Shown here in pieces: positions 18,055 to 57,964 of a DNA stretch of 64,000 nt. Position numbers and translations under genes: made by a program. The first letter of the stretch is position 1. Each line of letters begins with the position of its first letter. This stretch comes from an uncultured Candidatus Bathyarchaeia archaeon (GTDB lineage: Archaea; Thermoproteota; Bathyarchaeia; Bathyarchaeales; DTEX01). The notes under the pieces were generated by a model that ran no database searches, was not told the origin of the DNA, and saw nothing but the letters and a program-made list of their open reading frames with translations. Location of the stretch: positions 7,266 through 71,265 of the forward strand of contig CAZDRE010000006.1 in the NCBI GenBank assembly GCA_964508155.1, read 5' to 3'.

Positions 18055-18161
18055 TGGCGCCGGGGATGGGATTCGAACCCATGAGGCCCGCAAGGGCCAC
18101 TGGATCTCGAGTCCAGCGCATTTCCACTCTGCCACCCCTTATTGGGCCTTATCGGCCTGGC
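18055..18161 (-). tRNA. tRNA-Ser(CGA): tRNA-Ser (anticodon CGA) with a 20-nt non-canonical BHB intron between positions 3 and 4; CCA encoded
   Basis: The reverse complement reads GCC|aggccgataaggcccaataa|GGGGTGGCAGAGTGGAAATGCGCTGGACTCGAGATCCAGTGGCCCTTGCGGGCCTCATGGGTTCGAATCCCATCCCCGGCGCCA. The T-arm is ATGGG/TTCGAAT/CCCAT. The anticodon arm is CTGGA/CTCGAGA/TCCAG. A long variable arm marks it as class II. The acceptor stem GCCGGGG/CCCCGGC forms only after removing 18139-18158. Confidence 0.8.
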
Positions 18162-21763: not shown

Positions 21764-21990
21764 AGTTACTGAGCGAACTCAAATCTGAACTTCAGGTCTA
21801 AACCTAGAGTATAGATAATTCGGGAGAAATATTAATGGTTTCTGAAGATGGTTCTGTTGCGTCTTCGAGGGGTGGGTGGTAGCTTGGCTTGTTGCTTTTC
21901 GAGTGTTGCATTGCGGGAGACGCAACTTCCCCTCTTCTGCTCACCTAGCTTGTCCTCATCGCCGTATGGCTCGTTAGGGCTAGGTTCATA
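21764..21990 (-). ncRNA. candidate TnpB-associated omega/reRNA region (scaffold overlapping the tnpB 3' end, guide-like 15-mer at 21764-21778)
   Basis: The position matches the known TnpB architecture: the scaffold spans the ORF 3' end and right end, with the guide just beyond. Inverted repeats lie at 21856-21863/21919-21926 (GTTGCGTC/GACGCAAC) and 21867-21872/21929-21934 (GAGGGG/CCCCTC). No covariance model was run. Confidence 0.25.
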
Positions 21991-23136
21991 GCTACATTTG
22001 AGGGGCGGTCGAGGGCGAACCACACCCTCCCATCTGAGTAGGTTAATACCTGCTACGATGTGTCTGTTCATTAAGCCGTGTCTTTCGCATTCCACCAGCC
22101 CATTCGGGTATCTCTTCAGCCTAAACCCACATATCGGGCAGGTGGATGAGGAACCCCTGGTGTATCGGCTCTCTACGGTCTTAACGCCCTCCCACAAAGC
22201 CTTATATTCAATCTGGTTGAGGAACTTCCTGAACCACCAGTTGTTCAGTCTTCTCTTGAGTTTCTTAGAGCGCTTTGAGATCAGCTGAACTTTACCGTTG
22301 AACCTGTTGAGTCGTTCACTCTTCGCATTCACGGCTTTCCTTAAGCCCTTCAGGTCCTCATAGATTAAGCCATAATTCTTCTCTCTGCACCATTCTATTA
22401 TGCGTTTTGAGACTTGATGAAGCATCGTGGAGACCTTGTTGCGGTAGTTCCCAGACAGCTTTGAGAGAGCCTTCCTCAATACCCTTCTATCCTTTTGGTA
22501 TCTCCGTTGAAGATTCCTTTTCCTCTCGAAGTATCCGTAACCAGCTTCCTTCAACTTGGATAGGTCGAAGACCTTAACCTCGCCGTCGGAGCTTAAGGCT
22601 GTGACGTTATCCTCATTTATGTCTACTGCGATCCAGCCTTCAGGCTCCTCCGCCTTAACAGTCTTGGAGAAGGCTACATAGACAGCTTTCGAGGTCAGAG
22701 TTACTGAGCGAACCCTATATTCTTCTAGGAGGTCTCTAGCTCTCTTATAGAGCTGTATATGGAGGTATTGTCTAGGCTTTAAGGGTATTCTCAGCATCCC
22801 GTTACCTACTTTAACTGCTTGGTTCCCGATTTTAGCCATGAGCCTTCTAGCTCTAGGAGCCTTAACCCTACTATTTCTCCTCTTAGCTTTCCTGTAATTC
22901 TTGAGGATGACCGTAGCGACCTCTATGGCTGAGAGCACATACCAGCTATGATACCCATATTCCATCAGCCTGTGATAGACCTCTCTCGTAAGCCTAAACC
23001 TCGAGGTTATCCCCTTCTCCAACCCTATGCGGATGCAGTAGTTAACCATATTCCTGAATGCCTCAAGAAGCCTTAGAACATCCTCCGGGGGCTGGTAAGG
23101 TATAGAAACAGCCCTCAATGCCTTGGCCGCTTCCAC
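21832..23136 (-). CDS. tnpB: TnpB-like (IS200/IS605 OrfB) RNA-guided nuclease homologue with non-canonical RuvC-III motif
   Basis: 434-aa ORF with a GTG start. RuvC-I is 'WIAVDINEDN' and RuvC-II is 'LIYEDLKGL'. The zinc finger is 'CPICG...CERHG' (CCCH). The expected 'dRDvNAAiNIl' reads 'NRHIVAGINLL'. A ~65-aa low-complexity C-terminal tail follows. Confidence 0.75.
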   Translation of the reverse strand: MEAAKALRAVSIPYQPPEDVLRLLEAFRNMVNYCIRIGLEKGITSRFRLTREVYHRLMEYGYHSWYVLSAIEVATVILKNYRKAKRRNSRVKAPRARRLMAKIGNQAVKVGNGMLRIPLKPRQYLHIQLYKRARDLLEEYRVRSVTLTSKAVYVAFSKTVKAEEPEGWIAVDINEDNVTALSSDGEVKVFDLSKLKEAGYGYFERKRNLQRRYQKDRRVLRKALSKLSGNYRNKVSTMLHQVSKRIIEWCREKNYGLIYEDLKGLRKAVNAKSERLNRFNGKVQLISKRSKKLKRRLNNWWFRKFLNQIEYKALWEGVKTVESRYTRGSSSTCPICGFRLKRYPNGLVECERHGLMNRHIVAGINLLRWEGVVRPRPPLKCSYEPSPNEPYGDEDKLGEQKRGSCVSRNATLEKQQAKLPPTPRRRNRTIFRNH

Positions 23137-44639: not shown

Positions 44640-47528
44640 TTGTCGTTTGAATGGAGAGAGATTGAAGAGAAGTGGAGAAGAAGATGGGAGGAGGCTGGAA
44701 TATTCGAGGCGGATCCCGACCCCAAACGTAAAAAATGCTTTGTTACGTTTCCGTATCCATACATGAATGGGCCGCTACATTTGGGACATGGATTCACAGC
44801 CTGCAGAGTTGATGTTTATGCACGTTATAAGAGGATGAGAGGCTTTAATACGCTCTTCCCATGGGCTTGGCACTGGACCGGAGAACCAATAGTAGGCGCG
44901 GCATTACGAGTTAAAAGGGGAGACAAGGACATGATCAGGATGCTGAGGGAGATCGATGGTGTCCCCGAGGAAGAATTAAGCAAATTTGCAGATCCAGTTT
45001 ATATGGCTGAATACTACACGGCTGAGGGCAGAGAGACCGTTAAGAGAATCGGTTTCTCAGTCGATTGGAGAAGGGAATTTCACACAACATCCCTTGAGCC
45101 TACATACAGTCGTTTCATCGAGTGGCAGTATGAAACGTTAAGGAAGAAGGGTTACGTCGTTAAGGGAACACATCCGGTTGTTTGGTGTCCACATTGTAAA
45201 AGCCCAACTGGAGATCATGATCGCCTGGAAGGCGAAGGAGTATCAGCAGAGGAATATACACTCTTAAAGTTTCAATTTGAAGATGCCTATCTGCCTGCTG
45301 CAACTTTCAGGCCGGAAACGATATATGGAGTCACAAATATGTTTTTAAATCCAGATGCGACATACGTTGAGGCTCTCGTTGACGGCGAGAAGTGGATAAT
45401 CAGTAAAGAGGCGGCCTATAAGCTCTCAGAGCAGCTCAGAAAAGTTGAGATTTTAAGAGAGTTTAAGGGTGCTGAACTGATAGGGAAATACTTTATTGAT
45501 CCAGTAAGTAAGAGGAGGCTTCCTATACTTCCGGGATGGTTCGTTGATCCAAACTCAGCGACTGGAGTAGTATATAGTGTTCCAGCGCATGCCCCGGCGG
45601 ATTGGATAGCAATTAGGGATCTGATGGAGAAACCTGAACTCCTAGAGAAGTTTGGTATAGATCCGAAGGTTGTAAAGGAAATAAAGCCTATATCGCTTAT
45701 TGAGGTTGAGGGATTCGGCGAGTATCCAGCCATAGAGATAGTTGAGAATATGAAGATTAAGGATCAGTTTGATCCGAAGGTTGATGAGGCAACATCAATC
45801 GTGTATAAGAAGGAATTTCATACGGGAGTGTTAAAGCCCATAACTGGCAAGTATGCTGGTAGAACAGTTAGAGAAGTTAAGGCCGAGTTAATAGAGGACT
45901 TTAAGAGGGATGGAATAGCAGATTCGATGTATGATCTGCCTGAAAAGGTTGTATGCAGATGCATGACGAGATGCATAGTTAAGGTTCTCTCGGATCAATG
46001 GTTCCTAAAGTATTCCGATCCAGAATGGAAGGAGCTCGCACATGAAGCGATAGATAGGGCTAAGATATTTCCTGAGTCAGCCCGCGCATACTTCCATGAG
46101 AAGATAGATTGGCTTAGGGATTGGGCATGCGCTCGGAGAACCGGACTTGGAACGCCTCTCCCATGGAGTCCAGACTGGATAGTTGAGACTCTGAGCGACT
46201 CGACGATATATATGGCATTTTATACGATAGCGAAGCATATTAGGCAGTATAATATTAGGGCTGAACAATTAACGAATGAGGTCTTTGATTACATATTCTT
46301 CGGCTTGGGAGATCCGGAGAGGCTCGCCGAGAGGTCTGGGATAGACGTTGATGTGTTAAGGGGGATGAGAGAGGAATTCACGTATTGGTATCCGGTTGAT
46401 TTGAGGGTCTCAGCGAAGGAGCTCGTTCCAAATCACCTTTCATTCTTCATCTTCCAGCATACAGCTCTCTTTCCGCCGGAACTATGGCCAAAAGCAATAG
46501 GAGTTAACGGTATGCTCTCAATCGAAGGGAAGAAGATGTCTAAGTCTAAGGGAAACTTCCTTAAGCTCAGCGATGCAGTTGAAAAGTTCGGGGCTGACGT
46601 TACAAGGCTAACTCTTCTACTCGGAGCTGAGGACATGAACGATCCAGATTGGCGTGTTGAGAATGCAAAAAGCATAGATTCAAGGCTTAGAGCACTTTAT
46701 AGATTTATCAGTGAGATAATCGGCCTGAAGGGCGAATCTGAGGTTAGAAATATTGATCGTTGGTTGATCTCCATTCTTCAAGGAAGAATAAGAGCCGTGA
46801 CGGATGCTATAGAGAACTTGAAGACTAGAACAGCCGCTGAGGTAGCACTTTTTGAAATCTGGAATGATATTCGATGGTATCTGAGGAGGGCTGAGAATCC
46901 GAATCCGAAGATCCTATTGGAAGTTGTTGATGTTTGGATTAGGCTCTTAGCTCCTTTCATCCCGTATCTATGCGAGGAGCTCTGGCATATGATTGGAAGG
47001 GACGGCTTCGTATCCATTGCTGATTGGCCATTACCCGATGAGTCGAAGGTTGACGTGAAGGCTGAAGAGGCCGAAGATATGATCAGACAGCTCATAGATG
47101 ATACCGCAAACATCATCGAGGTCACGAAGATAACGCCTAGGAAGATATGCTATTACGTATCTTCAGATTGGAAATGGAGAGCATACTTGGAGATGCTTCG
47201 AGCATCAACCTCGGGAAAGGTTGATATGGGCTCAATAATGAAGAGTCTGATGAGAGATCCCGAGCTGAGGCGTTTAGCGAAGAATGTATCCGCGTACGTT
47301 GGAAAGAGCCTGCAGGAAGTGAATACCCTGCCAGATGAAAAAAGGTATAGGAGACTGGAAGCAGGGGAGATGGATGAGCTTAAGATATTAAATGAAGCAA
47401 GGAGCTTCATTGAGAGAGAATTTAAGGCTGAGGTTCTTGTATTCAGCGAGGATGATCCGGAAAGGTATGATCCGAAGAATAGGGCTGGAGCAGCGAAGCC
47501 CTATAGGCCAGCGATCTACATTGAGTAG
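44640..47528 (+). CDS. leuS: leucyl-tRNA synthetase
   Basis: 962-aa ORF with a TTG start 2 nt after the alaS stop. 'PYPYMNGPLHLGH' is the HIGH motif and 'KMSKSKGN' is the KMSKS motif. Confidence 0.95.
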   Translation: MSFEWREIEEKWRRRWEEAGIFEADPDPKRKKCFVTFPYPYMNGPLHLGHGFTACRVDVYARYKRMRGFNTLFPWAWHWTGEPIVGAALRVKRGDKDMIRMLREIDGVPEEELSKFADPVYMAEYYTAEGRETVKRIGFSVDWRREFHTTSLEPTYSRFIEWQYETLRKKGYVVKGTHPVVWCPHCKSPTGDHDRLEGEGVSAEEYTLLKFQFEDAYLPAATFRPETIYGVTNMFLNPDATYVEALVDGEKWIISKEAAYKLSEQLRKVEILREFKGAELIGKYFIDPVSKRRLPILPGWFVDPNSATGVVYSVPAHAPADWIAIRDLMEKPELLEKFGIDPKVVKEIKPISLIEVEGFGEYPAIEIVENMKIKDQFDPKVDEATSIVYKKEFHTGVLKPITGKYAGRTVREVKAELIEDFKRDGIADSMYDLPEKVVCRCMTRCIVKVLSDQWFLKYSDPEWKELAHEAIDRAKIFPESARAYFHEKIDWLRDWACARRTGLGTPLPWSPDWIVETLSDSTIYMAFYTIAKHIRQYNIRAEQLTNEVFDYIFFGLGDPERLAERSGIDVDVLRGMREEFTYWYPVDLRVSAKELVPNHLSFFIFQHTALFPPELWPKAIGVNGMLSIEGKKMSKSKGNFLKLSDAVEKFGADVTRLTLLLGAEDMNDPDWRVENAKSIDSRLRALYRFISEIIGLKGESEVRNIDRWLISILQGRIRAVTDAIENLKTRTAAEVALFEIWNDIRWYLRRAENPNPKILLEVVDVWIRLLAPFIPYLCEELWHMIGRDGFVSIADWPLPDESKVDVKAEEAEDMIRQLIDDTANIIEVTKITPRKICYYVSSDWKWRAYLEMLRASTSGKVDMGSIMKSLMRDPELRRLAKNVSAYVGKSLQEVNTLPDEKRYRRLEAGEMDELKILNEARSFIEREFKAEVLVFSEDDPERYDPKNRAGAAKPYRPAIYIE

Positions 47529-48793
47529 TGCACGCTTACAGATATTTTCTCTTTTCTCATTATCGCGTTTATAACTGCTTCTTCAGTTGCCTCAACCTCG
47601 ATAGGCCTTGCAAACTGTTTTACAACTATGTCAGGATCTTTAAGTCCATGTCCAGTGAGTATGCAAACGACAGTTTCATCTTTATCTATTAAGCCTTCGC
47701 TGACAAGCCTTATCAATCCGGCTATTGAAGCTGCGCTTGCAGGCTCAACGAATATTCCTTCGAGTTGAGCAAGAAGCCTCTGAGCCTCAAGTATCTCCTT
47801 ATCAGAGACCTTCTCCACAGTGCCGCCGGATTCCTTAACGGCTCTAACAGCTTTCTTCCAATTAACTGGAGAGCCTATCCTAATGGCTGTTGCAACGGTC
47901 TCGGGATTTTCAACAAACTCGATTAAGTCCATTCCCTTTTTGAGAGAATTCGCGATTGGCGCCGCGCCTTCAGCCTGTATGCCAATCATCTGTGGAAGAT
48001 CATCGATTAAGCCAATCTTGCGAAGCTCCGTGAAGCCTTTCCAGTAAGCGCTGATGTTCCCCGCGTTCCCAACTGGAATCACGATCTTATCTGGAACCTT
48101 CCCGCATAGTTGGTCGCGTATCTCGAAGGCCGCTGTTTTCTGCCCCTCCAGACGGAAAGGATTAACTGAATTGAGCAGATATATCCTATGAGTGTGACAT
48201 ATACTTCTGACTATCCTGAGAGCCTCATCGAAATTTCCCCTTATCTGTATTACTTTAGCCCCATGGATTATGGCTTGAGTCAATTTTCCGAATGCTATCT
48301 TACCTGATGGTATAAGAACTATGCATTCTATTCCAGCCCTTGCAGCATATGCTGCAAGGGAGGCTGATGTATTTCCAGTCGAGGCGCATGCAACCCTAAT
48401 CATTCCAAGCTCTAGGGCCTTAGTAACCCCGACGGTCATGCCTCTGTCCTTGAATGATCCAGTCGGATTTTCACCTTCATTCTTAACGTAAAGGTTCTTC
48501 AATCCGATTTTATCGGAGAGTCTTATGCATCTGTTAAGTGATGTTCCGCCTTCGCTGAGGCTTACTCGACGCTCAAATGTGCTCACCGGGAGGAGCTCTC
48601 TATATCGCCAAACGGATAAAGGCCTTCTTCTCCATGCATCTTCAATATCTTCAGGAATTTCTGAGAGATCATATTCAACTGATAATAAGTCTCCACATCT
48701 CCCGCAGTTGTAGATCACCTGATCGGGATTATACCTTGATCCGCAGCCTATGCACTCCAAGTGGAATGGTATCTTCATCAACTCACCATCCAA
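47516..48793 (-). CDS. thrC: threonine synthase
   Basis: 425-aa ORF with an N-terminal zinc ribbon 'CIGCG...CGRCG', PLP-lysine motif 'PTGSFKDRG' and 'PVGNAGN'. The likely start is 'MKIPF' at 48778. Confidence 0.9.
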   Translation of the reverse strand: MDGELMKIPFHLECIGCGSRYNPDQVIYNCGRCGDLLSVEYDLSEIPEDIEDAWRRRPLSVWRYRELLPVSTFERRVSLSEGGTSLNRCIRLSDKIGLKNLYVKNEGENPTGSFKDRGMTVGVTKALELGMIRVACASTGNTSASLAAYAARAGIECIVLIPSGKIAFGKLTQAIIHGAKVIQIRGNFDEALRIVRSICHTHRIYLLNSVNPFRLEGQKTAAFEIRDQLCGKVPDKIVIPVGNAGNISAYWKGFTELRKIGLIDDLPQMIGIQAEGAAPIANSLKKGMDLIEFVENPETVATAIRIGSPVNWKKAVRAVKESGGTVEKVSDKEILEAQRLLAQLEGIFVEPASAASIAGLIRLVSEGLIDKDETVVCILTGHGLKDPDIVVKQFARPIEVEATEEAVINAIMRKEKISVSVHYSM

Positions 48794-48917: not shown

Positions 48918-49436
48918 CTAAATTGAAATATCTTGAATGCTCTGAAATCTGATCTTTTCCGCAAAGTCTTTAAGTGGAAGAGTCTTCATCTGTCTAAGGC
49001 ACTTCATATTTAGTTCCAAGAGTAACCTTGCTTTTTCGCATTCAAGAAGTAACTTCTCCATATTCTTTCTACGTTCTTCGCTGAGGCAAGAAATATTCTT
49101 TCTGAGATAATTTATTGTGGAAGATAATTGTCGCTCAACTATCTCTTGAAAGAAGCGTTCGAGGACATCTAAAATGGATCTCACAGCTTTATACAGCTTT
49201 TTTCTTCCCTTCTTCCTATGAGTGACCAAACCGATGGCCTCAAGAAATGAGAGGCTGCTGCTAATGAGACCTGTGCTATAACCAGTCAACTGGGTAAGTT
49301 CATCTTGCGTCAAGTATCCCCCATGAAGTAGTAGAGAAGTGAATATCTTCCCAACAGTCTCGCCTAAGCCCAGCTTGGATATCAACTTTGAAATTATCGA
49401 AATGAAATCGTCGGCAATGTAAGATTCATCGCTCAT
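48918..49436 (-). CDS. wHTH transcriptional regulator (MarR/GbsR/TrmB-like)
   Basis: 172-aa ORF with 'GKIFTSLLLHGGYLTQDELTQLTGYSTGLISSSLSFLEAIGLVTHRKKGRKKLY'. It lies upstream of thrC and is co-directional with it. Confidence 0.55.
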   Translation of the reverse strand: MSDESYIADDFISIISKLISKLGLGETVGKIFTSLLLHGGYLTQDELTQLTGYSTGLISSSLSFLEAIGLVTHRKKGRKKLYKAVRSILDVLERFFQEIVERQLSSTINYLRKNISCLSEERRKNMEKLLLECEKARLLLELNMKCLRQMKTLPLKDFAEKIRFQSIQDISI

Positions 49437-51738: not shown

Positions 51739-53163
51739 ATGCGGCAATATTTATTGTGGGGCGACTATTCTTTGGGCAGCCTCCAATGCGTCGATTGTGG
51801 AAAAATCCAAGATTATCCTCCAGTGATTAAATGCCCAAAATGCGGAGGTTTAGTCGAATATAGGATCGACATTGAAAGATCGAAGGAAATAGATCTCAGC
51901 GGCGAATTTTCATTCTGGAGATATAGACCTCTTCTTCCAGAGGTAAAAAATGTTGCATCCATGAAAGAGGGTGGAACGCCATTCTACAGAGCTGAGAGAC
52001 TCTCAAAGGAGCTCGGGATATCCGCATTATACTTAAAGGATGAAACCCGAAATCCAACAAATTCCTTCAGAGACAGAGCCGCCGCACTATTAGTCTCAAA
52101 TATCCTCGACTTAAAAATGAAGGTAGCGGTATGCGCAACGAATGGAAATATGGGAGCCTCGTTATCGGCATATTGCGCCAAATATGGCATAATCTGCCAT
52201 GCGATAATCCCAAGGATCGTGGATATGGGTAAACTTGCCCAAATGTTGGTTTATGATGCCATCATAGAGGAGCATGGGGAGACCGTTGATGAGTCCATCG
52301 AAAGAGCCAAGGTCCTTGTTGAGGAAACCGGATGGTATCAGGCGACTCCGGAGCTAAATCCACTGGTTATAGAGGCACAAAAGACTATAGCATTTGAAGT
52401 CATCGAGCAGTTTGGAGTTCCGGACTGGTTTATAGTCTCTATGGGGAGTGGGGGAACAGCTTACTCAATATGGAAAGGCTTTAGAGAGTTCTATGAAATT
52501 GGAAAAATAGATGCTTTACCCAAGATTCTTGGAGTTCAAGCTGAGGGATGCTCGCCTATAGTCAATGCCTACCTTAATAATGATCTTGGATCTGAAGGGG
52601 CATTTACACATGCAATTGGAATACTCGTCAGAAATCCACTTCAAATGAACCTGGCATTGAAGGCAATCAAAGACTCAGATGGTATGGCAATTTCAGTCTC
52701 TGATCAAGAGATATTTGCAGCTGAGCAAGAAATAGCTAGGCTTGAAGGGATATTTGCTGAACCCGCAAGCTCCGGGACGATAGCGGCATTAAAGAAGGCC
52801 ATGACGGAATCGATCATTAAGGGCGACGAATCTGTTGTATGCTTGATAACTGGAAGCGGATTAAAGGCAACAGATATTCTGCAGGCTCTTTCAAAGAAGA
52901 GGAAATCAGCGGCGCTTGGAGCGGAATTCAGCACAAAGGAGAAGATACTCAGGCTGTTATCTAAAGAGGATAAATATGGATATGAGCTTTGGAAGGATCT
53001 CGGTAGGATTATGACGAGATCCGCAGTCTATCAGCATCTAAATGAGCTCTGCAATCGAGGCCTGCTCTTACCTTATGTGAAAGACGGAAGGAAATACTTC
53101 AGAATTACCAACAGAGGAAAAAGAATTTTAAAGGCGCTTGACGAGATAAAAATTCTGCTTTAA
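51739..53163 (+). CDS. threonine-synthase-like (PLP fold type II) domain with Lys->Arg at the PLP site, fused to a C-terminal PadR-like wHTH
   Basis: 474-aa ORF that aligns along its length with the ThrC at 47516-48793, including the Zn ribbon 'CVDCG...CPKCGG'. It reads 'PTNSFRDRA' (AGA at 52069-52071) where ThrC has 'PTGSFKDRG'. The C-terminal segment is 'KYGYELWKDLGRIMTRSAVYQHLNELCNRGLLLPYVKDGRKYFRITNRGKRIL'. Confidence 0.75.
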   Translation: MRQYLLWGDYSLGSLQCVDCGKIQDYPPVIKCPKCGGLVEYRIDIERSKEIDLSGEFSFWRYRPLLPEVKNVASMKEGGTPFYRAERLSKELGISALYLKDETRNPTNSFRDRAAALLVSNILDLKMKVAVCATNGNMGASLSAYCAKYGIICHAIIPRIVDMGKLAQMLVYDAIIEEHGETVDESIERAKVLVEETGWYQATPELNPLVIEAQKTIAFEVIEQFGVPDWFIVSMGSGGTAYSIWKGFREFYEIGKIDALPKILGVQAEGCSPIVNAYLNNDLGSEGAFTHAIGILVRNPLQMNLALKAIKDSDGMAISVSDQEIFAAEQEIARLEGIFAEPASSGTIAALKKAMTESIIKGDESVVCLITGSGLKATDILQALSKKRKSAALGAEFSTKEKILRLLSKEDKYGYELWKDLGRIMTRSAVYQHLNELCNRGLLLPYVKDGRKYFRITNRGKRILKALDEIKILL

Positions 53164-53222
53164 CACAAACGGCTCACATAAAATTTATTCCAAAAAAATA
53201 ATATTAAAGTTATAACTGTAAT

Positions 53223-54002
53223 ATGAGGGTATTATCAATGCTGAAAGAGAAGAAAGTAACATCACCTTTTATTGTAGCCTTAGCGGCGATCTTTACATCC
53301 TTCGTCTGCATAGCAACCATACTATTCTCTGTGTATATTCCATCCACCGAGGGATTCTTTAATATCGGGGAATCCATGGTCTTCCTCTCAGCTCTGCTCT
53401 TCGGCCCATATGTAGGCGCATTCGCTGGCGGAGTTGGTTCAATGTTGGCTGATCTAATTTTGGGATATCCACACTACGCGCCTGCAACATTAGTGATTAA
53501 GGCATGTGAGGGTTTCATTGTAGGCTTCTTGGCCGAGCATAATCCCAAATTGAAATCAAGACTTAAATGGAAGATCTTCACATTGCTTCTCGGCTTAGTA
53601 GTCGGGCTCCTATTGGCCATTATCGGCTCCATCTACTATAGTGGCGAAGGCGAACTAACACTCGGATTTATAACATGCAAGTTTATGTTGCCATGTGTGT
53701 TCTGGCTGATACTCGGAGGATTAGTAGCATTTCTAATCTCGCTGGTAGGCTTTCTCTCTGATCCACAATTTGGATGGATCTTGTTCTCAGTGACTCTAGG
53801 AGGCCTAATGATGGTTCTTGGTTATTTCCTATATGAAATGTTCATCATTGGTTGGCTCTTTAATATTTCAGTGATAGCCATAGCTGAGGTTCCAGTAAAT
53901 GTTGGGCAGATGATTATAGGGGCGCTTATAGCTATTCCAACTGCAAGGGTGATCAGGCGTGCATTTCCGCAGATGAGGAGAAGTGCCGATTCAAAGTTTT
54001 AA
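53223..54002 (+). CDS. ECF-transporter S-component-like membrane protein
   Basis: 259-aa ORF with 6-7 TM segments. 'GESMVFLSALLFGPYVGAFAGGVGSMLADLILGYPHYAPATLVIKACEGFIVG' resembles S-component signatures. Confidence 0.55.
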   Translation: MRVLSMLKEKKVTSPFIVALAAIFTSFVCIATILFSVYIPSTEGFFNIGESMVFLSALLFGPYVGAFAGGVGSMLADLILGYPHYAPATLVIKACEGFIVGFLAEHNPKLKSRLKWKIFTLLLGLVVGLLLAIIGSIYYSGEGELTLGFITCKFMLPCVFWLILGGLVAFLISLVGFLSDPQFGWILFSVTLGGLMMVLGYFLYEMFIIGWLFNISVIAIAEVPVNVGQMIIGALIAIPTARVIRRAFPQMRRSADSKF

Positions 54003-54676: not shown

Positions 54677-55618
54677 TTATTTACTCGACTTTTCTATGAT
54701 GATCTCCTTTGCAATTTGATATGCAACTTTATAATCGAATATTCCTTTCGGCTCCTCCGCGGCTCTTCTGATAAGCTCGGCTTCAGTTTTATTCTTGAGT
54801 TTCCCTATCGCTAATGCTCCTATTCCAAAGATCCCGGGCAGAACTTCATCTCCATCCGCAGATGATTCTAGTCCCTCAATTCCAGGCGGCGGAACAGCAT
54901 TTACGTCAGCCACGACCTTACACTTCTTTCCATATTCCTTAAGTATGCTTATTGGGAGTAGCTGAACTCCGGCCGCTCCGGTCGAGGCTATGATCTCAGC
55001 ATCCTTAATCGCCTCTCCAATCTTTTCCGGCGTGTCAGCCTCAGCCGCAAACACCCTCTCCTCACCGAGCTCCCTATTTATCTTCTCAGAGAAGGCCTTA
55101 GCCCTCTTTAAACTGCGTGATGTAATCGTAACCTTAGCCCTCTCGGATGCATAAAGCATGGCGGCGGTTCTGCCAACCGGCCCCGTCCCAGCGAGAACTG
55201 TAACTCTCTTATTCTCTAAGTCTCCAAGTTCCTTGCTCATTGATAGTTCCAGAGTTTTTGCGACTAGTGCTGAAGCAGTTGTGTATGCGCCTCTGGGATC
55301 GATTATTACGCTTAGCTCGAAGGGTGGAAACATGCACTTCTTAATCTTCCTTAGAATCTCATTTGTAAGTTCCATGTCCCTGCCATTAATGAAGATTTTA
55401 GTATGCTTGATCCCTTTGGGTCCGCGTGGAAATATAATGTCGTATATTAGCCTCTCGGCATCCTCGACTGTTACGTTCTCATATTTCCAAATCGCTGAGT
55501 CCGGATATAGATCTAATGTCAAGAGCATATCAAATGGGCTTGCATGCTTGTCAGTGTCAAGGAATATAAAGGCCTTCTTATACTTCTGTTCGGACAAAAC
55601 TTTTCTCCCTCCACACAT
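54677..55618 (-). CDS. NAD(P)-dependent methylene-tetrahydromethanopterin/-folate dehydrogenase-like (MtdA/MtdB family)
   Basis: 313-aa ORF with the N-terminal 'FIFLDTDKHASPFDMLLTLD' and Rossmann motif 'VTVLAGTGPVGRTAAMLYA'. These resemble my recollection of methylotroph MtdA ('FQFDTD...PSVFDVVV', 'VVLAGTGPVG'). Confidence 0.55.
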   Translation of the reverse strand: MCGGRKVLSEQKYKKAFIFLDTDKHASPFDMLLTLDLYPDSAIWKYENVTVEDAERLIYDIIFPRGPKGIKHTKIFINGRDMELTNEILRKIKKCMFPPFELSVIIDPRGAYTTASALVAKTLELSMSKELGDLENKRVTVLAGTGPVGRTAAMLYASERAKVTITSRSLKRAKAFSEKINRELGEERVFAAEADTPEKIGEAIKDAEIIASTGAAGVQLLPISILKEYGKKCKVVADVNAVPPPGIEGLESSADGDEVLPGIFGIGALAIGKLKNKTEAELIRRAAEEPKGIFDYKVAYQIAKEIIIEKSSK

Positions 55619-55631
55619 CTACTTAATAAAT

Positions 55632-56816
55632 CTAAATCTTTTTATGCCTATGCTTTCTCTTTTCCCTTTCAATGATGTTTAAATGCTTAAAATTCCCACG
55701 TTTTATCGGATACTTACCGACTTTCTTTGCATATTCCACTTCATATTTTAGCATTTCCGGGGGGATATTCGCGTATGTCTCTCCTCCATTATCGAAGATG
55801 TATCCTCCGCCTGGAGCCGCATAATATATGCATCTCTCAACTTCGATTTCGATTGCCTCAAATGAATTCTCTAGGAGAGCTCTCCAGTTTGCGTTTCCGT
55901 TGAATATGGCTTTTCCCCTAAATTTCTCAGCTAGAACTTTTATGTCGCTTTCAACTCCAACATCTACGCTTCTAACCTTATAAACATCCGTAATTATGTC
56001 TGCTATGTGCTCCATGTGGCTGTCCATGTGGAGGGATCTGTCTTTTGTGCCGAAGGTTTCGTATAGGCTTAGGTTATAGGGCAGAGTGAACTTCTCGTAC
56101 ATTCTCCTATTTAAATATCCGGAATGATCATCTGCAAGTCCTAAATGTCCTCTTTCGGCTCCAGTAACCTCGTAATAGTATTCTCTCAGAACCTTGAATG
56201 TCTCTTCAAGCTTTCTGAAGAGCTTATGCATTTCGTTTGGATACTTTAAAAGCCAGAAGTAAAGTCTGCTTGTTCCGAGTAGAGATCCAGCCGCTGAAAC
56301 GGGTGGATGTATCCCCAAGCCGCCTCCAACTGGAAGATCGCCATAATTCTCCCTTACAATCCTCTTAAACTTCTCGAATCTACTATAATATTCCCTTATG
56401 CCCACATGCTCATATGGATCTGGAATTTCGAGGTTATCTATATCCTCTAGGCTCTTAATGCAGGGTATGATCCATGGGCTTCTCCAGGAATTCTCATCAT
56501 CCGGCATCTTTATCTCGCAGTTGAAGACTATGCCTTCGGCTATTGAGCCTACATCGAAGCTCACGCCTATATACGAAATATCATCTTTAAGCCAATTTAT
56601 CCTCCACTTAATTCCCTTGATCTGAGCATCAAGCATGACCCTCAAATTTCCGTAATACTCCTTGAATGTATAGCCGAAAATCTTAGCATAATAGGGGCCT
56701 CCAAGACCTATAATAACGGGGACTCTATCAGGCTCCTCGAACTCCTGAACTCTCTCCAGTCTTCTCCTGTTCTCCTCGATCAGGCTATTATATTTTTCAT
56801 AATTGAACGGTTCCAT
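55632..56816 (-). CDS. URO-D-like family protein (paralogue 2), function unknown
   Basis: 394-aa ORF with the URO-D/MtaA-fold layout. 'LHMDSHMEH' stands where Zn-dependent MtaA-type enzymes have Cys ligands. Confidence 0.45.
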   Translation of the reverse strand: MEPFNYEKYNSLIEENRRRLERVQEFEEPDRVPVIIGLGGPYYAKIFGYTFKEYYGNLRVMLDAQIKGIKWRINWLKDDISYIGVSFDVGSIAEGIVFNCEIKMPDDENSWRSPWIIPCIKSLEDIDNLEIPDPYEHVGIREYYSRFEKFKRIVRENYGDLPVGGGLGIHPPVSAAGSLLGTSRLYFWLLKYPNEMHKLFRKLEETFKVLREYYYEVTGAERGHLGLADDHSGYLNRRMYEKFTLPYNLSLYETFGTKDRSLHMDSHMEHIADIITDVYKVRSVDVGVESDIKVLAEKFRGKAIFNGNANWRALLENSFEAIEIEVERCIYYAAPGGGYIFDNGGETYANIPPEMLKYEVEYAKKVGKYPIKRGNFKHLNIIEREKRKHRHKKI

Positions 56817-56866: not shown

Positions 56867-57964
56867 TCATCCTTTACTTTTGCTCTCTCTTAGCATGTCA
56901 TCCTCGTAGAGCCTCAATCTAAGCGGACAAGGTTCTCTCTTCTCATTGAAGGCGAAGCCTGCGGTCACCCAAATCTCGCCTGGATGAGCCTCAAAGACGT
57001 ATGGATAGCATAGTCTCCCATTTCTGTAGCGAGCTATCACGACGGGCGGAGTCCAAGTTTTTCCATCATCCTCAGAGAAGGCTATTGAGAGTTCTTCACG
57101 ATGCCAAGAGGCCGATATTTCACGATGCCACGGCCCAGGCTTTCTCCTAGGATACGTGAAGCCCTCGGGATTAAGCCTATTCCATACAACAGCCAGTCGG
57201 CCGCTCTTTAACCTAATCATCTTCGCTGGGGAGCTGCTTGCATCGAGTGGGGAGGGCATAATTATTCGCCAGTATCTACCTCCATCCTCAGAGATCGCCT
57301 GCCAAAGCCTATCAAGATTTGTGCGGATGAGCATCAGTAATCTTCCATCACTCAATTCGGCGAGTGTAGGCTCTAAGGCCCCATCGTGGTGTCCATGTCC
57401 TCCTAAGTCTATCCAGTTGCTTCTATGCCAAGTCTTCCCCTCATCATCTGAGAATATTGATGCTACTATGAAACGGCCTGGATCGGATGCGCAGTGCTCT
57501 ATACTCGCCACTACACGTCCAGAGGACGTCTCAATGAAACCGAAGAAATTCGCGTTATAACCGCCCAAAACCATCTGGTTATCGATCCAAGTCATGCCGC
57601 CATCTAAGCTACGGATAGACCATATCTCTAATCTGCAATCGTCACCTGGCTCTCCCAGCTCGTCATTCCACGTGAAATTGTATGTGGTGAAGTTCAAGTA
57701 GAGCAGAATTATCGTTCCCTTTTTTGTCTGAACTAAACTATAGGATGATGGCTCTTTGTCATTTATGCCCTCGCAGACTGGTATTGGATTAGTCCATGAA
57801 AGACCATCATCACTACTGAATCTTATTCCATTTCGATCTACTGTTGCCAATCTTCCATCTTTCAGCCTCAAAAATGGGCCGTTGCTATCTATTTGAAGTT
57901 CTTCGCAGAGAGGATGTATCCATCTATTCTCCATAGTGATCTGCCCATATTTTACTTTTAACAC
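56867..57964 (-). CDS. BNR/Asp-box repeat protein (sialidase-like beta-propeller)
   Basis: 365-aa ORF with five Asp-boxes: 'SSDDGLSW', 'SLDGGMTW', 'SDDEGKTW', 'SEDGGRYW' and 'SEDDGKTW'. Confidence 0.8.
   Translation of the reverse strand: MLKVKYGQITMENRWIHPLCEELQIDSNGPFLRLKDGRLATVDRNGIRFSSDDGLSWTNPIPVCEGINDKEPSSYSLVQTKKGTIILLYLNFTTYNFTWNDELGEPGDDCRLEIWSIRSLDGGMTWIDNQMVLGGYNANFFGFIETSSGRVVASIEHCASDPGRFIVASIFSDDEGKTWHRSNWIDLGGHGHHDGALEPTLAELSDGRLLMLIRTNLDRLWQAISEDGGRYWRIIMPSPLDASSSPAKMIRLKSGRLAVVWNRLNPEGFTYPRRKPGPWHREISASWHREELSIAFSEDDGKTWTPPVVIARYRNGRLCYPYVFEAHPGEIWVTAGFAFNEKREPCPLRLRLYEDDMLRESKSKG

Follow-up and report, generated by a model that had tools for sequence, protein, structure and literature searches.

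A threonine synthase-like archaeal protein without the Schiff-base lysine as a probable vitamin B6-responsive regulator

The analysed window is the whole 64,000-nucleotide stretch of DNA from an uncultured Candidatus Bathyarchaeia archaeon (GenBank assembly GCA_964508155.1, contig CAZDRE010000006.1). It contains two genes related to threonine synthase (ThrC). One is a canonical thrC, which reads PTGSFKDRG at the active site and scores 376.6 bits on TIGR00260 against a cutoff of 167.1. About 3 kb away lies an intact open reading frame for a 474-aa paralogue, in which a zinc ribbon and a ThrC-like domain are followed by a C-terminal domain of the PadR type. Here the motif reads PTNSFRDRA, and an AGA codon for Arg111 replaces the lysine forming the Schiff base with pyridoxal phosphate (PLP). 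The next gene downstream belongs to family PF07155 and encodes an ECF-type S component, and a palindrome is found at its promoter. The features are listed in Table 1.

Table 1 Features of the locus (window coordinates)
Feature	Coordinates	Strand	Remarks
Canonical threonine synthase gene (thrC)	47516..48793	-	Comparator and paralogue; probably not part of the regulon
Gene for the ThrC-like/PadR fusion protein	51739..53163	+	474 aa; proposed B6-responsive regulator
N-terminal zinc ribbon	51775..51867	+	Residues ~13-43; C17, C20, C32, C35
Fold-type II PLP-enzyme (ThrC-like) domain	51958..52854	+	Residues 74-372; proposed sensor
AGA codon	52069..52071	+	Arg111 in place of the Schiff-base lysine
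Flexible linker	52879..52926	+	Residues 381-396
PadR-type winged helix-turn-helix (wHTH)	52927..53160	+	Residues 397-474
AT-rich TATA-like stretch	53184..53200	+	Inferred promoter of the S-component gene
Candidate operator (palindrome)	53201..53224	.	Halves ATATTAAAGTTA and TAACTGTAATAT
ECF-type S-component gene, PdxU/PdxU2(HmpT) family	53223..54002	+	Predicted regulated target; the true start may be the ATG at 53238

The domain assignments are supported by sequence and by predicted structure. A Pfam search identified PALP (PF00291, E 1.5e-71) and, at residues 403-465, PadR (PF03551, 31.3 bits, gathering score 27). The four cysteines of the zinc ribbon are consensus residues in the family alignment, and the model shows beta strands at residues 13-17 and 38-43. 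AlphaFold2 gave a pLDDT of 91.9 for the protein, values below 50 for the linker, and a winged helix with the topology a1-a2-a3-b1-b2-a4 at residues 399-473. In a Foldseek search, the top hits of the ThrC-like domain were the threonine synthases 2D1F, 2ZSJ, 6NMX and 1V7C, with TM-scores normalised to the target of 0.82-0.86. A profile of the C-terminal domain retrieved PadR structures first in the PDB (5DYM, 4.3e-12), and about the top 45 hits were almost all PadR-family or PadR-like. The separate model of this domain was also confident (pLDDT 95.8; H6-16, H21-27, H34-46, E50-55, E58-63, H65-80), with query-normalised TM-scores of 0.72-0.85 to PadR and ArsR wHTH proteins. Structure alone, however, does not separate PadR from ArsR.

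Since lysine and arginine codons can differ by a single base, a sequencing error or a decaying pseudogene had to be considered. This explanation is refuted by the survey of orthologues. All 120 closest homologues (63-93% identity), from many samples and with the same architecture, read P-T/S-x-S-F/Y-R-D-R. In a MAFFT alignment of 150 representatives at 50% identity, 73 of 79 proteins carrying the C-terminal extension lack the lysine, whereas 67 of 70 without it keep the lysine. Loss of the lysine is thus tightly coupled to the extension, and the residue is replaced by R, L, I, V, M, T, F, Y, S, A or N. All 76 fusions form one clade on the catalytic core, spanning Bathyarchaeia, Asgard archaea, Nitrososphaerota, Thermococci and Desulfurococcales. 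Nevertheless, pseudoenzyme status is not universal. Some family members keep the lysine yet have the same wHTH, operator type and neighbour, so the loss of the lysine is not what makes the protein a regulator.

Other changes set the protein apart from functional threonine synthases. The motif NPFRLEGQKT, found in the ThrC of the window and in 2ZSJ, reads NPLVIEAQKT, and the loop ASTGNTS becomes ATNGNMG. The arginine of the first motif, which probably binds the phosphate of O-phosphohomoserine, aligns with valine here, with S/T/A in the Arg clade and with F/L/Y in the hydrophobic clade. In contrast, the cofactor pocket is kept. Residues S109, F110, D112, R113, N137, G236, G238, T371 and G374 are invariant or at least 90% conserved at 32-50% overall identity.

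Current annotation nonetheless implies a threonine synthase. The protein passes the TIGR00260 cutoff (186.6 against 167.1) and matches NF004170, also named "threonine synthase", end to end, although its score of 382.1 is below the cutoff of 421. Together with the largely retained active-site scaffold and the few family members that keep the lysine, this could suggest a bifunctional threonine synthase or another PLP enzyme with an accessory DNA-binding domain. This seems very unlikely. Replacement of the Schiff-base lysine, by arginine here and by aliphatic residues in the sister clade, should be incompatible with catalysis in fold-type II PLP enzymes, and a canonical thrC is present in the same window. 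Indeed, NF004170 itself is centred on such lysine-less fusions, as the Thermococcus chitonophagus protein WP_068578498.1 scores 799.6 bits. The cutoffs therefore do not discriminate the pseudoenzyme, and this annotation can make threonine biosynthesis look complete or duplicated in archaeal metabolic reconstructions.

The conserved partner of the fusion gene is not thrC but the S-component gene. A PF07155 gene is adjacent in 49 of 73 loci, with a median gap of 69 bp. Among loci with at least 1.5 kb of flank on both sides, 46 of 55 have the S gene or pdxST nearby. The S gene lies on the same strand in Bathyarchaeia, Odinarchaeota and Thermosphaera, and is divergent in Thor/Hermodarchaeota and Nitrososphaerota. 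The association is not without exceptions. In Thermococcales and some Methanomicrobia and Jordarchaeia loci, no B6 gene lies next to the regulator gene. A survey of the neighbours in loci lacking the S gene (Thermococci, Methanomicrobia, Jordarchaeum and some Nitrososphaerales) revealed only housekeeping genes, i.e., FttA, RpiA, MCM, GINS and topoisomerase IB.

The palindrome of 22-24 bp (consensus TAGTATAGTTnnAACTATACTA) has 12-nt arms in the window, which are 92% complementary and 0 nt apart. It overlaps the start of the S gene and abuts the TATA-like stretch, an arrangement also seen in orthologous intergenic regions. With a position weight matrix, it is the only hit of 8 bits or more in the window (23.5 bits; shuffle maximum 13.8), although this site was among the 28 used to build the matrix. 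The palindrome is conserved at the S-gene promoter in about 33 Bathyarchaeia loci and follows the S gene in four loci where this gene is displaced from the regulator. In a metagenome scan based on the motif only, 102 of 120 hits were located -56 to +46 bp from the start of a PF07155 gene, and 69 of those loci also hold the regulator gene. Other clades carry other palindromes at the same place, while no obvious palindrome was seen in the intergenic region of a Thermosphaera locus. A role of the palindrome as an RNA hairpin or terminator finds little support. The predicted fold is no better than that of shuffled sequences (z-score +0.76), no Rfam element is present, and the site travels with the S gene rather than with the end of the regulator gene. 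As for autoregulation through the same palindrome in Bathyarchaeia, no copy was found upstream of the regulator gene, where a different semi-conserved element, ...AACCGATAAAGAAAAGTT, is present instead.

Several findings link the locus to vitamin B6. PF07155/COG4720 is the family of PdxU and PdxU2/HmpT (PMC9997740), and pyridoxamine is the substrate of HmpT (PMC4860826). The S protein of the window scores 114.9 bits on PF07155, and its only PDB sequence hit is HmpT/PdxU2 (4HZU_S, E 4e-12). The HmpT pocket residues E41, Y120, N140 and Q143 are conserved in 52 archaeal S proteins. Interestingly, the same palindrome precedes pdxS in two contigs. In locus L024 the order is regulator, palindrome, pdxS, pdxT, and in locus L114 it is regulator, palindrome, pdxS. 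In a Nitrososphaerales locus of the Ile type, pdxS-pdxT is divergent to the regulator gene, with the motif of that clade in between.

Uptake of a different micronutrient, such as the thiamine precursor HMP, is an alternative. PF07155 members (HmpT) were originally predicted to transport HMP (PMC4860826), and a ThiL/HypE-like AIRS gene of the PurM type follows the S gene in 23 loci. Moreover, three pocket positions differ from HmpT in all 52 archaeal S proteins (H84K, Q87E, S136E), so the substrate could be a non-B6 compound. This alternative is nevertheless considered doubtful in view of the pdxS and pdxST loci, the PLP-binding residues kept in the sensor and the absence of a TPP riboswitch. 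No ECF A/T components were found in the 64-kb window.

The sequence-only reading had proposed a pseudoenzyme transcription factor sensing threonine, homoserine-phosphate or PLP-related metabolites. Its core idea is supported by the comparative evidence, but of the three signals only the last is favoured. A regulator of threonine biosynthesis, controlling thrC and hom, would be in line with the descent of the sensor from ThrC. Furthermore, thrC is a neighbour in 11 of 73 loci, divergently upstream, and in four loci only 100-150 bp lie between the genes. One locus (L003) also has hom and an ACT-domain gene. However, these loci are all close Bathyarchaeia relatives, and the adjacency could simply be a remnant of tandem duplication. 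No operator-like site lies near thrC in the window, no shared palindrome appears upstream of the regulator gene, and the putative phosphate-binding arginine is lost. Some room for a threonine link is left, but it appears unlikely.

Taken together, the gene most likely encodes a one-component transcription factor and not an enzyme. This reading is held with moderate confidence; it rests on comparative evidence and the protein is linked to the palindrome by co-localisation only. The ThrC-derived domain would serve as the sensor, tethered by the flexible linker to the winged helix. The protein probably acts as a dimer, as inferred from the dimeric ThrC and PadR families, and would bind the palindrome and repress the S-component gene. 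The most likely effector is PLP or another phosphorylated B6 vitamer, held non-covalently in the old cofactor site. When B6 is plentiful, the holo-repressor would shut off B6 uptake, and in other lineages the same logic would apply to pdxS-pdxT biosynthesis.

It is about as likely as not that the protein belongs to a pan-archaeal family of PLP/B6-responsive repressors, present in Bathyarchaeia, Asgard archaea, Nitrososphaerota, Desulfurococcales and Thermococcales. Such a family would have arisen once, by fusion of a threonine synthase to a PadR domain followed by loss of the catalytic lysine. It would control a PdxU-like ECF transporter, pdxST, and an uncharacterised PurM-superfamily enzyme that may be a missing step of B6 salvage or homeostasis. 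No description of the fusion was found in the literature searched, from which the regulation of PLP, an essential but toxic cofactor, is not known in archaea. B6 transporters are likewise described as largely unidentified (PMC9997740). Orthologues exist in cultured organisms, namely Thermococcus chitonophagus and Thermosphaera aggregans.

The proposed regulator can be compared with several known systems. In the bacterial MocR/GabR/PdxR regulators, a PLP-enzyme-derived sensor is also fused to a winged helix, and PdxR regulons contain pdxST, pdxK and the transporter gene pdxU (PMC5320631), the same gene families found next to this protein. In contrast, their sensor is a fold-type I aminotransferase-like domain, their wHTH is of the GntR type and the domain order is reversed. 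MocR proteins keep the PLP lysine, which this family has mostly lost, and they are reported absent from Archaea (PMC5320631). The analogy thus concerns only the proposed function and logic, without homology of architecture, and would be a case of convergence between fold-type II and fold-type I enzymes turned into sensors. Archaeal vitamin regulators such as RbkR (riboflavin kinase and wHTH; PMC5397151) are also one-component proteins, in which a domain from an enzyme of the vitamin's own metabolism senses the cofactor. They control biosynthesis and uptake genes, including ECF S components, through lineage-variable palindromic operators. Both the sensor and the DNA-binding families differ, however, and the sensor proposed here derives from a cofactor-using enzyme and not from a cofactor-making one. 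RbkR is still catalytically active, which this protein most likely is not. Threonine synthase shares the zinc ribbon and the fold-type II PALP fold, but has the Schiff-base lysine and the motif arginine and lacks the PadR domain. Finally, PadR-family proteins such as PadR, LmrR and AphA share the wHTH sequence signature and topology, and like them the protein would bind a palindromic operator. Classical PadR proteins are small stand-alone proteins of about 110-190 aa that bind ligands at their own dimer interface, whereas here the domain would be the output module of a much larger fusion.

The ORF of the fusion gene encodes 474 aa and carries Arg, encoded by AGA, at the lysine position. A search against Pfam identified PALP at residues 74-372 (E 1.5e-71) and PadR at residues 403-465 (31.3 bits against a gathering score of 27). 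The AlphaFold2 model, which was run with a 113-sequence alignment, has a pLDDT of 91.9 and shows a Zn-ribbon hairpin, a ThrC-like core, a disordered linker at 381-396 and a winged helix at 399-473. The best PDB matches found by Foldseek are threonine synthases, with TM-scores normalised to the target of 0.82-0.86. The canonical thrC of the window scores 376.6 bits on TIGR00260. The sequence-only reading described a threonine-synthase paralogue in which Arg replaces the PLP lysine and which is fused to a PadR-like DNA-binding domain. Every element of this observation is therefore correct.

Location of the features in the window and in the surveyed loci (L numbers denote loci or contigs of the survey, outside the window)
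Location	Strand	Feature	Remark
Window 51739-53163	+	Threonine-synthase-like/PadR fusion gene	474 aa
Window 52060-52080	+	Motif around the lysine position	In frame N-S-F-R-D-R-A
Window 52069-52071	+	AGA codon	Arg at the lysine position
Window 47516-48793	-	Canonical thrC	PTGSFKDRG
Window 53201-53212 and 53213-53224		Palindrome in front of the S gene	12-nt arms
Window 53223-54002		S-component gene (PF07155)	
Window 53238		ATG	Suggested by the median operator spacing to be the real start of the S gene
Window 48918-49436	-	Small TrmB/ArsR-like wHTH protein	172 aa; between canonical thrC and a UbiA prenyltransferase and GT4 glycosyltransferase pair; an independent regulator of unknown target
Window 21832-23136	-	TnpB / IS605 OrfB-like protein	Cas12f1-like TNB domain plus OrfB_IS605; mobile-element relic
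Window 54677-56816	-	Protein with the N-terminal domain of methylene-tetrahydromethanopterin dehydrogenase (Mpt_N), next to a URO-D/MtaA-like methyltransferase	A hint of H4MPT-linked C1 metabolism
Window 56867-57964		BNR-repeat protein	Follows the preceding entry
Window 18059-18141	-	tRNA-Ser(CGA)	The only RNA gene found in the window by ARAGORN and Rfam
L001:10048-11067, L024:11042-12049		AIRS/AIRS_C protein, also in 21 other loci	About 335 aa
L205:10001-14149		Regulator gene, S gene, duplicated ABC ATPase, 232-aa protein	Thermosphaera aggregans-like contig
L121:2083-2104, L128:1372-1393, L153:435-456		Palindrome inside the 5' end of a class I fumarate hydratase gene	Three metagenome contigs
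L049-L068, L074, L079		Bipartite motif of the hydrophobic clade	Just upstream of the regulator gene
L001, L002, L009, L012, L013, L015, L039		Semi-conserved element AAAATGTTTACTAAGCAACCGATAAAGAAAAGTT	About 40-70 bp upstream of the regulator gene

A sequencing error is effectively excluded as the origin of the Arg. All 120 closest homologues (63-93% identity, mostly Bathyarchaeia) carry both PALP and PadR, and all have Arg at the lysine position. The survey was extended to 150 representatives of 50%-identity clusters. Proteins with a C-terminal extension of at least 55 aa lack Lys in 73 of 79 cases. The replacements are R 16, L 20, I 15, V 6, T 5, M 4, F 3, and single S, Y, A and N, and two further sequences are fragments with no residue aligned at this position. 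In contrast, proteins without the extension keep Lys in 67 of 70 cases. In a neighbour-joining tree built on the catalytic core alone, for which no support values were computed, all 76 fusions fall in one clade, with an "Arg" subclade and a "hydrophobic" subclade. Interestingly, two Lys-bearing fusions (P0121 and P0125) are nested in the Arg subclade. According to source names and GTDB genome titles, the family is found in Bathyarchaeia, Loki-, Hel-, Thor-, Hermod-, Odin- and Jordarchaeia, Nitrososphaerota, Terraquivivens, Methanomethylicota, Thermococci, Methanomicrobia and Desulfurococcales.

Despite an overall identity of only 32-50%, residues conserved in Lys-bearing relatives remain invariant or at least 90% conserved in the fusions. 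These are S109, F110, D112, R113, N137, G236, G238, T371 and G374, which lie in the ThrC motifs around the cofactor. Other positions have changed. The position aligned with the Arg of NPxR(I/L)EGQKT is Val in the window protein, S/T/A in the Arg clade and F/L/Y in the hydrophobic clade, and ASTGNTS has become ATNGNMG. These motifs probably correspond to the PLP-phosphate, O3', N1 and substrate-phosphate contacts of ThrC. On this assumption, the pattern is interpreted as selection acting on the cofactor site but not on the chemistry and the O-phosphohomoserine site. A true enzyme is effectively excluded, although current annotation implies one. The window protein passes the TIGR00260 thrC cutoff (186.6 against 167.1) and aligns end to end, wHTH included, with the 442-position NF004170 (PRK05638) "threonine synthase" model. 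However, the Arg-type protein of Thermococcus chitonophagus (WP_068578498.1) scores 799.6 bits on that model, against a cutoff of 421. The curated equivalog is therefore centred on the Lys-less family of proposed regulators, which looks like systematic misannotation.

As for the C-terminal domain, a profile search against the PDB returned PadR-family structures first (5DYM, 4.3e-12), and about the top 45 hits are almost all PadR-family or PadR-like. Modelled alone, the domain has a pLDDT of 95.8 and the topology a1-a2-a3-b1-b2-a4. It superposes on PadR and ArsR wHTH proteins with query-normalised TM-scores of 0.72-0.85.

The neighbours of 73 fusion loci were clustered without prior assumptions. 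The top family is an ECF S-component-like membrane protein (PF07155), which is present in 49 loci with a median gap of 69 bp. The second is a PurM-superfamily AIRS/AIRS_C protein, which follows the S gene in 23 loci. Its nearest relatives are HypE and ThiL, but it scores below every NCBIfam cutoff, and it is a candidate uncharacterised B6-related enzyme, e.g., a kinase. Canonical thrC appears in only 11 loci. Among loci with at least 1.5 kb of sequence on both sides, 46 of 55 have the S gene or pdxST within 3 kb. The orientation of the S gene differs by clade: it is downstream on the same strand in Bathyarchaeia, Odinarchaeota and Thermosphaera, and divergent in Thor/Hermodarchaeota and Nitrososphaerota. 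This pattern argues for functional coupling rather than inherited synteny. In the Thermosphaera aggregans-like contig (L205), the S gene is followed by a duplicated ABC ATPase (430 aa) and a 232-aa protein with no Pfam match. This arrangement looks like a complete ECF-type operon, but no palindrome was evident in the 49-bp spacer. In Thermococcales (L204, i.e., Thermococcus chitonophagus CP015193.1, and L045, L046 and L051), the regulator gene always sits directly after FttA/aCPSF1 and has no B6 gene beside it.

The intergenic region in front of the S gene carries a 22-bp palindrome, TAGTATAGTTnnAACTATACTA, directly after a TATA-like element. Allowing up to 5 mismatches, it occurs 41 times in 1.1 Mb of fetched loci, almost always at the S-gene promoter, including four loci where the S gene has moved away from the regulator gene. 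The window copy was also found independently in a search for repeats. It is the only PWM hit of 8 bits or more in the 64 kb (23.5 bits; the maximum over 20 shuffles is 13.8), although this site was among the 28 used to build the PWM. A threonine or O-phosphohomoserine regulon is disfavoured, as there is no operator near thrC, thrC adjacency is lineage-restricted and the residue aligned with the ThrC motif Arg is gone. A motif-only scan of metagenome contigs returned 120 loci. In 102 of them, a PF07155 gene starts -56 to +46 bp from the site (median 13), and 69 of those loci also hold the regulator gene. The remainder include obvious bacterial chance hits. The palindrome inside the fumarate hydratase gene of three contigs is either a chance match conserved in one lineage or an extra site. 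As RNA, the region folds no better than shuffled sequence, and no Rfam family matches it. Other clades carry different palindromes at the same position. Odinarchaeota has ATACTTGTATACAAGTAT. In 18 loci of the hydrophobic clade (Thor/Hermod/Promethearchaeota, Nitrososphaerota, Terraquivivens), the motif is the bipartite ATATATAAg-N5-6-rGCCTATATATAGGC, which overlaps TATA-like elements in the divergent promoter region. The element AAAATGTTTACTAAGCAACCGATAAAGAAAAGTT, found in a subset of Bathyarchaeia, is not the operator palindrome and may be the regulator's own promoter.

PF07155/COG4720 is the family of the B6-vitamer S components PdxU and PdxU2/HmpT (PMC9997740). The only PDB sequence hit of the window's S protein is 4HZU_S, HmpT/PdxU2, whose substrate was identified as pyridoxamine (PMC4860826). 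In 52 archaeal S proteins, the window's included, the HmpT pocket residues E41, Y120, N140 and Q143 are conserved, whereas H84, Q87 and S136 are uniformly K, E and E. This suggests a related but possibly different vitamer. Speculatively, an invariant pocket Lys might suit an aldehyde vitamer such as pyridoxal. Three further loci tie the regulator directly to PLP synthesis. In L024 (DATHCJ010000024.1), the same palindrome follows the regulator gene and precedes pdxS (SOR_SNZ, 341 bits), pdxT (SNO, 184 bits) and the AIRS-like gene. The record title of this contig says "Candidatus Limnocylindrales bacterium", but it carries a Bathyarchaeia-type regulator (59% identity) and its operator, and was probably mis-binned. 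A second locus, L114, shows regulator, palindrome and pdxS. In L079, a Nitrososphaerales locus with an Ile-type regulator, pdxS-pdxT is divergent to the regulator gene, with that clade's motif between them. Archaea make PLP only through PdxST (PMC9997740). A non-B6 micronutrient such as HMP nonetheless remains possible, given the original HmpT prediction, the ThiL-like neighbour and the altered pocket, but it does not explain the pdxST loci.

It is proposed that the protein is a repressor, inferred to be dimeric, whose ThrC-derived domain binds PLP or another phosphorylated B6 vitamer non-covalently. In the ligand-bound state, the PadR domains would bind the palindrome, which overlaps the transcription start region downstream of the TATA element, and block expression of the B6 transporter. 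In other lineages, the same mechanism would block pdxST. Both the direction of control and the identity of the effector are inferences. Loss of the lysine would remove catalysis and make cofactor binding freely reversible, which suits a concentration sensor. Nevertheless, Lys-retaining members with the same operator type and neighbour (loci L029-L032) show that the fusion, rather than the Lys loss, defines the regulator.

No description of this architecture or function was found in the literature searched, and the whole case is computational. Enzyme-derived sensors fused to a wHTH and controlling vitamin metabolism are already known, however, namely MocR/PdxR, RbkR and ThiR, next to which the present proteins would form a new family. 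Bacterial PdxR (MocR) regulons comprise pdxST, pdxK and pdxU, and MocR regulators are reported absent from Archaea (PMC5320631).
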